This document shows positions 1,274 to 1,340 of a DNA stretch of 1,659 bases, one piece after another. Source of the stretch: Escherichia coli. GTDB taxonomy: Bacteria; Pseudomonadota; Gammaproteobacteria; Enterobacterales; Enterobacteriaceae. The stretch is taken from the NCBI RefSeq assembly GCF_003334355.1, contig NZ_QOWP01000083.1, one strand, 5' to 3'. The position numbers were made by a program, and so were the translations under genes. Position 1 is the first letter of the stretch, and each line of letters begins with the position of its first letter. The notes under the pieces are model-generated. The model was not told the origin of the DNA, did no database searches, and was given only the letters and a program-made list of their open reading frames with translations.

Positions 1274-1292
1274 ATTTTATAACCCATATACG

Positions 1293-1319
1293 GGCGCCAG
1301 AAATGGCGCCTTTTTTATT
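1293..1319 (+). terminator. Rho-independent (intrinsic) terminator downstream of J
   Basis: Perfect 7-bp GC-rich inverted repeat GGCGCCA (1293-1299) / TGGCGCC (1304-1310) around a GAAA tetraloop (1300-1303), followed directly by TTTTTTATT (1311-1319). It begins 20 nt after the J stop codon. On the opposite strand the hairpin is followed by CGTATATGG rather than a U-tract, so it should act mainly on + strand transcripts. Confidence 0.75.
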
Positions 1320-1330
1320 GCAGAAAAGCG

Positions 1331-1335
1331 AGAGG
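1331..1335 (+). promoter_or_regulatory. Shine-Dalgarno sequence for lom
   Basis: AGAGG (core GAGG at 1332-1335) lies 5 nt upstream of the ATG at 1341 (context gcgAGAGGtaattATG), which is canonical spacing. Confidence 0.7.
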
Positions 1336-1340
1336 TAATT

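Follow-up and report, generated by a model that had tools for sequence, protein, structure and literature searches.

A probable intrinsic terminator at the 3' end of J, followed by a lom gene with no evident promoter, in a lambdoid prophage of Escherichia coli

In lambdoid phages, RNA polymerase that starts at the late promoter and has been modified by Q is described as transcribing the entire late operon (PMC7547250; PMC2147009; 10.1101/2023.05.14.540688). Sites of predicted termination within this operon are already on record, and the GenBank entries of phages 434 (OL657226) and Ayreon (MF807953) carry the annotation 'terminator' both between J and lom and after lom. The transcription of lom in phage lambda has been described in several ways. 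The gene is cited as being expressed in lysogens (PMC7067206; PMC4651098), and one array study did not detect it in a lambda lysogen (PMC2147009). The latter paper also speaks of a 'lom promoter', of which it says little is known. In lytic growth, Cas13a guides that target the lom transcript counterselect lambda (PMC12318184).

The stretch of E. coli DNA analysed here (the window) is 1,659 nt long and comprises the 3' part of J, an intergenic junction and the 5' part of lom, all from a lambdoid prophage. Its features are as follows.

2-1273, + strand: 3' part of J (tail tip / host specificity protein), 423 codons and a TGA stop at 1271-1273; NCBIfam lambda_TipJ, RefSeq gpJ
1274-1291, + strand: spacer of 18 nt between J and the hairpin, read from the sequence, containing TATAAC at 1278-1283
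1292-1311, + strand: predicted terminator hairpin, with stem GGGCGCCA (1292-1299) and TGGCGCCT (1304-1311) and loop GAAA at 1300-1303
1311-1319, + strand: U-tract TTTTTTATT, with six T at 1311-1316 and then ATT to 1319, directly abutting the stem
1320-1340, + strand: lom leader of 21 nt, the left end of the lom cassette by comparison of J-lom with J-stf junctions, with the Shine-Dalgarno sequence GAGG at 1332-1335, 5 nt before the ATG (1341)
1341-1659, + strand: 5' part of lom (outer-membrane beta-barrel of the Ail/Lom/OmpX family), truncated by the end of the window; RefSeq Ail/Lom family protein

A previous sequence-only reading had described the same hairpin, loop, T-tract, TATAAC and 21-nt gap before the lom ATG, and all of its coordinates hold when the sequence is read again.

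The protein encoded upstream matches the NCBIfam model lambda_TipJ with E = 1e-216 across profile positions 736-1163 of 1163, and the protein encoded downstream matches Ail/Rck/Lom/OmpX relatives. The closest genome is NZ_AP045766 (strain 23CRST009), in which a prophage adjoining ybhB has 99.9% identity to the window. Several sequenced lambdoid and Stx-converting phages in which the two genes are annotated as J and Lom are 91-95% identical to it. The junction is widespread. Among 5,426 complete E. coli genomes, 4,403 contain a match to a 186-nt query that spans it (median 2 places per genome, maximum 14). J is mosaic towards its 3' end, and there are phages with unrelated C-terminal (receptor-binding) regions whose homology to the window begins only at about position 1190, 1214 or 1235. 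The location of these boundaries implies that roughly the final 12 codons of J travel with the terminator.

We regard it as very probable that positions 1292 to 1319 are an intrinsic (Rho-independent) terminator at the 3' end of J, which lies within the lambdoid late operon and is read through by Q-modified polymerase. The element combines a GC-rich stem and short loop, a U-tract located 3' of the stem, and compensatory changes among its relatives. There are eight pairs in the stem, six of which are G-C, with one G-U at the base and one A-U closing a GAAA loop of the GNRA tetraloop type. The first T of the U-tract (1311) is able to pair with G1292. The predicted folding energy of the 35-nt hairpin element is -15.7 kcal/mol, compared with -6.3 +/- 2.3 kcal/mol for shuffled sequences (z = -4.0), and none of 200 shuffles is as stable. 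A scan for consensus terminators reports this hairpin as well, but the scan taken alone is unremarkable, as there are 2 sites in the window where 1.4 are expected from shuffles. Thus, the case for a terminator rests on fold energy and conservation, and the terminator is strong by prediction. There is no T-run following the hairpin on the minus strand, which makes the element unidirectional. A non-exhaustive search for a competing antiterminator fold returned, in both the minimum-free-energy and centroid structures of 1260-1345, only the terminator and a small hairpin in the coding end of J, and it showed no conserved competitor of the kind expected in an attenuator or riboswitch.

There are 84 junctions in our first comparison and they represent 31 distinct sequences. 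A flank-anchored sample was also taken from viral contigs with exact search patterns that span TTTTATT, the distal part of the T-tract, and the leader 3' of it, and that leave the hairpin free to vary. Of the 119 junctions in this sample that contain lom, 118 retain a hairpin, as do all 45 without lom, and the predicted energies of these hairpins are between -12.6 and -15.7 kcal/mol. The sole exception (contig L161, minus strand, approximately 7840-7910 of the reverse complement) has its 5' arm replaced by a sequence ending in ATCCTTAACTGATCGGCATTA, which we take to be the terminal repeat of IS4. In this contig an insertion sequence appears to have entered the terminator stem just upstream of lom.

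Among 19 distinct aligned junctions, 99.3% of cells are paired. Changes on both sides are seen in three of the eight stem pairs (G-C to A-U, C-G to U-A and A-U to U-A), and one-sided intermediates such as G-U, U-G and A-C are represented also. The covariation score of the stem is reached by none of 500 shuffles, and partner columns that have been slid out of register pair in only 38-62% of cases, with the qualification that the aligned junctions are close relatives and that the compensatory changes represent few independent events. Variants of the stem include GGGCGCC/GGCGCC, GGGCACC/GGTGCC and GGGCGTC/GACGCC, as well as GGGCACCT/AGGTGCC in an Stx1 phage. The T-tract is unchanged in all 19 of the distinct aligned junctions. 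The T run adjoining the stem is likewise constant in the flank-anchored sample, where TTTTATT is fixed by the search patterns. In addition, lambda and Stx1_14040 carry unrelated hairpins with a T-tract at the homologous position. Judged by these comparisons, the pairing of the hairpin is under selection, and a structure that is selected at the RNA level and directly abutted by a U-tract argues for an intrinsic terminator.

Covariation shows that pairing is selected and does not reveal what the pairing is for. One possibility is that the hairpin is mainly an element of RNA stability or processing rather than a terminator, for example as a barrier against 3' exonucleases on cleaved J mRNA or as a means of setting the ratio of J, lom and stf. 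The hairpin still forms in the antiterminated transcript, where it could block decay in the 3' to 5' direction, and terminator stems are described as stabilizing 3' ends (PMC4104026). However, an invariant U-tract abutting the stem is a hallmark of intrinsic termination that would be superfluous in a stability hairpin, and T-tracts also follow the non-homologous hairpins of lambda and Stx1_14040. We therefore consider a role mainly in stability or processing to be improbable.

The loop is flipped from GAAA to TTTC at the position homologous to 1300-1303, with the palindromic stem unchanged, in the relatives L006, L008, L009, L011, L012, L017 and L023. A reverse-complement loop within an unchanged palindromic stem implies that the whole hairpin has been inverted at the level of DNA. 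The other loop variants, GGAA (including that of lambda) and GCAA, all fit the GNRA pattern. Perhaps, then, the palindrome is a site that acts as DNA, such as a hot spot of recombination or an operator bound by a protein dimer. The inverted repeat GGCGCCA-N4-TGGCGCC is perfect, RNA covariation would be mimicked by symmetric half-site changes, the loop flip is a DNA-level event, and the boundary of the lom cassette abuts the site. Yet the stem accepts several different sequences, among them G-U and U-G intermediates, which are sensible only in RNA, the stems of lambda and Stx1_14040 are unrelated, and the conserved T-tract is present on one side only. This leaves a DNA-level function with hardly any credence in our view, and we return to the terminator at the end of J.

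The most variable stretch of the entire junction, when junction variants are compared, is the part of the spacer that adjoins the hairpin. This observation bears on whether the region might supply the 3' module of a small regulatory RNA that originates from the J 3' end, in the manner of Hfq-dependent sRNAs. The succession of an AU-rich AAUUUUAUAA, a hairpin and then UUUUUUAUU resembles an Hfq-binding 3' module, and prophages of pathogenic E. coli are described as rich in such sRNAs (PMC4104026; PMC7547250). A seed region would not usually vary as much as this stretch next to the stem does, however, and we see no promoter upstream. A search of both strands against Rfam 15 gives no match at E <= 1, and lom and tail genes go unmentioned among the Hfq-bound prophage sRNAs in the available text of PMC4104026. 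An sRNA origin is thus very improbable.

There are also relatives in which the terminator occurs without lom, namely Lambda_2E9, ev017, Tritos and 45 viral contigs. In these, the spacer, hairpin and U-tract after J are the same as in the window, and they lead directly into TGTGGAGTGAATATG and the side-tail-fibre gene stf, whose ATG is located 11 nt past the T-tract. Homology between lom-containing and lom-less phages stops at 1319/1320 and resumes past a second terminator located 3' of lom. This second terminator, between lom and stf, consists of AGCCCGCC-TGTTCA-GGCGGGCT followed by TTTTTT, with a predicted energy of -18.5 kcal/mol for the 41-nt region (L004 9960-10000). After it come GTGGGGTGAATATG and stf, with the stf ribosome-binding site directly behind the terminator. 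The second terminator looks stronger than the one after J, and its loop and stem differ between phages, with lambda carrying the version GCCGGAACCGGTGGGC (L003 1590-1650).

Because the same hairpin precedes stf where lom is absent, the terminator at 1292-1319 belongs to J and not to lom. On this comparison of sequences, lom is best described as a putative promoterless insertion cassette that carries a ribosome-binding site, the lom gene and its own terminator, and that has been placed right after the T-tract of the J-terminator, in front of the stf ribosome-binding site. Moreover, the location of an identical terminator 11 nt before stf, a late virion gene, indicates that spacing which leaves no room for a promoter is normal inside the late operon and that read-through must be the rule.

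The cassette exhibits some of the traits expected of a moron. It is present or absent between homologous J and stf neighbours, and it has its own downstream terminator. A search restricted to the sigma-70 consensus found no promoter of its own, and cassette-specific sequence begins just 21 nt before the ATG. Its composition is not divergent either, as the G+C content of lom is approximately 0.51-0.59 and thus within the range of the adjoining J 3' end and stf. A signature of horizontal transfer in the base composition of lom was rejected on these grounds.

By definition a moron has its own promoter (PMC3594210), and this definition, together with the reports of lom expression in lambda lysogens noted above, favours the existence of a lom promoter that either lies inside the J 3' end or overlaps the hairpin, with lysogenic mRNA reaching lom by partial read-through. 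Such a promoter would concern lysogeny and is compatible with a J-terminator that is read through in lytic growth. The sequence offers little for it. A scan for the sigma-70 consensus finds no site on the + strand anywhere in the 1,659-nt window. In a position-weight scan, which uses classic hexamer frequencies and gives approximate scores, the best + strand score in 1101-1340 is 4.98 bits, and 90% of shuffles score at least that. For comparison, this scale gives 8.4 bits to lambda pRM, 9.2 to the wild-type lac promoter and 12.2 to pR, and it places pL, pR and lacUV5 at about 12-13 bits, so the best site is far under even pRM. Similarly, there is no promoter-like site common to the four junction types (lambda, Stx1_14040, 434 and the window). 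The sequence-only reading had reported no convincing -35/-10 pair and a TATAAC without a matching -35. The former is borne out by both scans and the latter by the position-weight scan, whereas the alternative it raised of a promoter within J finds no support in that scan or in the comparison of the four junctions.

Two specific candidates were rejected. The first is TATAAC (1278-1283) as a -10 element. It is mostly conserved, but it lacks a -35 and the final T, it is also found in phages without lom, and it is altered in some lom-containing junctions (to TATACC, TATCAC or TAAAAC). Moreover, if transcription started about 7 nt downstream, the RNA would begin with the terminator itself, at +1 to +28. 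The ATAACCC motif is likewise present in lom-less phages and is thus not specific to lom. The second candidate, TTTATT-17-AATTAT, overlaps the T-tract, scores 4.8 bits and would direct initiation to a position within lom.

The best sigma-70-like match in the window, TTGAGA-17-CAGAGT (528-556, + strand, 8.8 bits), has a weak -10 and is located upstream in J, with some 790 nt between it and lom. Chance would probably yield such a score in 1.6 kb, as the best scores of 240-nt shuffles average 7.3 bits. In phage 434 only, there is a TTGATA-16-TAGCGT in J, about 185 nt upstream of lom (L001 1403-1430), that scores 10.2 bits on this crude scale; it is not among the top-scoring sites of the window, lambda or Stx1_14040 junctions.

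The sequence-only reading had further argued that 21 nt between the T-tract and the lom ATG leave no room for a sigma-70 promoter downstream of the terminator. The gap is indeed of this length and no promoter is seen there, but the length is not the constraint it was taken to be, since promoters can overlap terminator DNA. A limit is set by the mosaic C-terminus of J. Because its homology begins at about 1235 or 1190, a promoter that travels with lom would be confined to the final few dozen bases of J, where none is seen. Together with the absence of lom signal from the array study of a lambda lysogen (PMC2147009), these observations cause us to consider a promoter in the J 3' end or over the hairpin unlikely.

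The setting of the locus agrees with read-through of the J-terminator in late transcription. In NZ_AP045766, a gene for a Q-family antiterminator (3195616-3195993) is located approximately 30 kb upstream. It shares its strand with the genes for lysis, head and tail and with J and lom, and there are no opposing genes in the tail region, as expected of a late operon. Expression data exist for lambda itself. The log2 ratios reported there at 20, 40 and 60 min of induction (PMC2147009 Table S1) are ratios to the lysogen level that are confounded by genome replication and that concern a non-homologous hairpin, so they support read-through without measuring termination.

lambda J: 0.07, 0.95 and 5.43
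lambda lom: -0.72, 1.54 and 6.01
lambda orf-401 (stf): -0.60, 0.45 and 5.27
lambda orf-314 (stf): 0.46, 1.73 and 6.61

Both lom and stf follow late kinetics parallel to those of J, and their ratios do not fall visibly across the hairpins. By RT-PCR, a 497-fold value at 60 min is given in Table S2 for a row printed as 'lon', which we take to be lom because the paper names lom among its RT-PCR targets (PMC2147009).

Of the routes to lom expression that the sequence-only reading had listed, Q-type read-through is the one that gains support, from the layout before stf in lom-less phages, the late kinetics in lambda and the co-oriented Q gene upstream. We infer that unmodified polymerase terminates at the J hairpin and that Q suppresses this termination. 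During lytic growth, polymerase that has been modified by Q at the late promoter would ignore both the J-terminator and the second terminator after lom, and J, lom, stf and tfa would be made from one long late transcript. Since such a transcript would read through to lom, the gene would need just the ribosome-binding site in its 21-nt leader. In a repressed prophage that lacks Q, the hairpin would halt stray transcription leaving J. If late transcription is built to read through the J-terminator in this manner, the missing lom promoter is to be expected and presents no puzzle.

Lysogenic expression of lom that is independent of Q is not accounted for by this model alone, nor by anything in the window. 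It may arise from weak transcription that starts inside J and leaks through the terminator, from a promoter that is not of the sigma-70 type or depends on an activator, or from cells in which the prophage has been induced spontaneously.

The prophage of NZ_AP045766 is riddled with insertion sequences, with three copies of IS1203 (in the tape-measure, gp10 and terminase genes), one IS2 and two copies of IS3 (in the replication gene O and in stf); the feature coordinates are L004 1-3416 and 13030-14192 and L256 4599-5812, 12692-13905, 21513-22741 and 28866-30028. It also carries trkG, ynaK and ydaY, as does the Rac prophage of K-12. It is probably defective, and Q-driven late transcription may never reach lom in a prophage that is broken in this way. 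E. coli K-12 was considered and rejected as a source of mapped transcript ends. In its Rac prophage, IS5 interrupts the lomR pseudogene, which also overlaps ynaA, a remnant of the tape-measure gene, and the J-lom junction is unannotated (L085 3390-4985).

The J-lom site is thus very probably an ordinary intrinsic terminator, and it is already annotated as a terminator in public phage records. A by-product of the analysis is a definition of the edges of the lom cassette, which extends from right after the T-tract of the J-terminator to right after its own terminator and has no visible promoter. The question of what supplies the lysogenic lom transcription reported for lambda is sharpened as a result, and with the junction present in about 4,400 of 5,426 genomes, its answer would be broadly applicable. 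Perhaps lom is a promoterless passenger of the late operon rather than a classical moron, in which case the Lom of repressed prophages would come from cryptic transcription that starts inside J and leaks through, or from spontaneous induction, and its main role could be lytic. We offer this proposal tentatively and regard it as more doubtful than not. If true, Lom could serve mainly the lytic cycle, and not lysogenic conversion, across a very widespread lineage.

Among known systems, moron elements (Juhala et al. 2000, as described in PMC3594210) resemble lom in that the gene is optional between J and stf, has its own terminator and encodes a host-fitness protein, but the lom cassette differs in its lack of a visible promoter and of compositional contrast. 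The terminators that Q-modified polymerase reads through, tR' and those downstream of it, share with the J-terminator the location of an intrinsic terminator in a co-oriented late operon downstream of the Q gene. However, tR' is regulatory and promoter-adjacent and yields a short RNA in lysogens, whereas the J-terminator is about 30 kb downstream, with no sign of any regulatory function other than insulation.

The J-lom hairpin of lambda (NC_001416, approximately 18921-18938), CGTCCG-GGAA-CGGGCG followed by TTTTATTAT, is unannotated in both NC_001416 and J02459. It is unrelated in sequence to that of the window, with a shorter (5-6 pairs) and weaker stem, and its 35-nt region has a predicted energy of -9.9 kcal/mol to which a second small hairpin contributes. 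Despite these differences, it occupies the same position and has a GNRA loop and a T-tract, as in the window. A close likeness is to the J-lom terminators of phages 434 (OL657226.1, 18940-18966) and Ayreon (MF807953.1, 18454-18494), whose annotations are computational predictions. These phages differ from the window in the upstream C-terminus of J, which is a mosaic variant, and their hairpin (GGGCACCA/TGGTGCC) differs by one compensated pair, A-T there and G-C here. Their terminators are nevertheless homologous to that of the window, being located at the same position with an identical T-tract and an identical lom leader.
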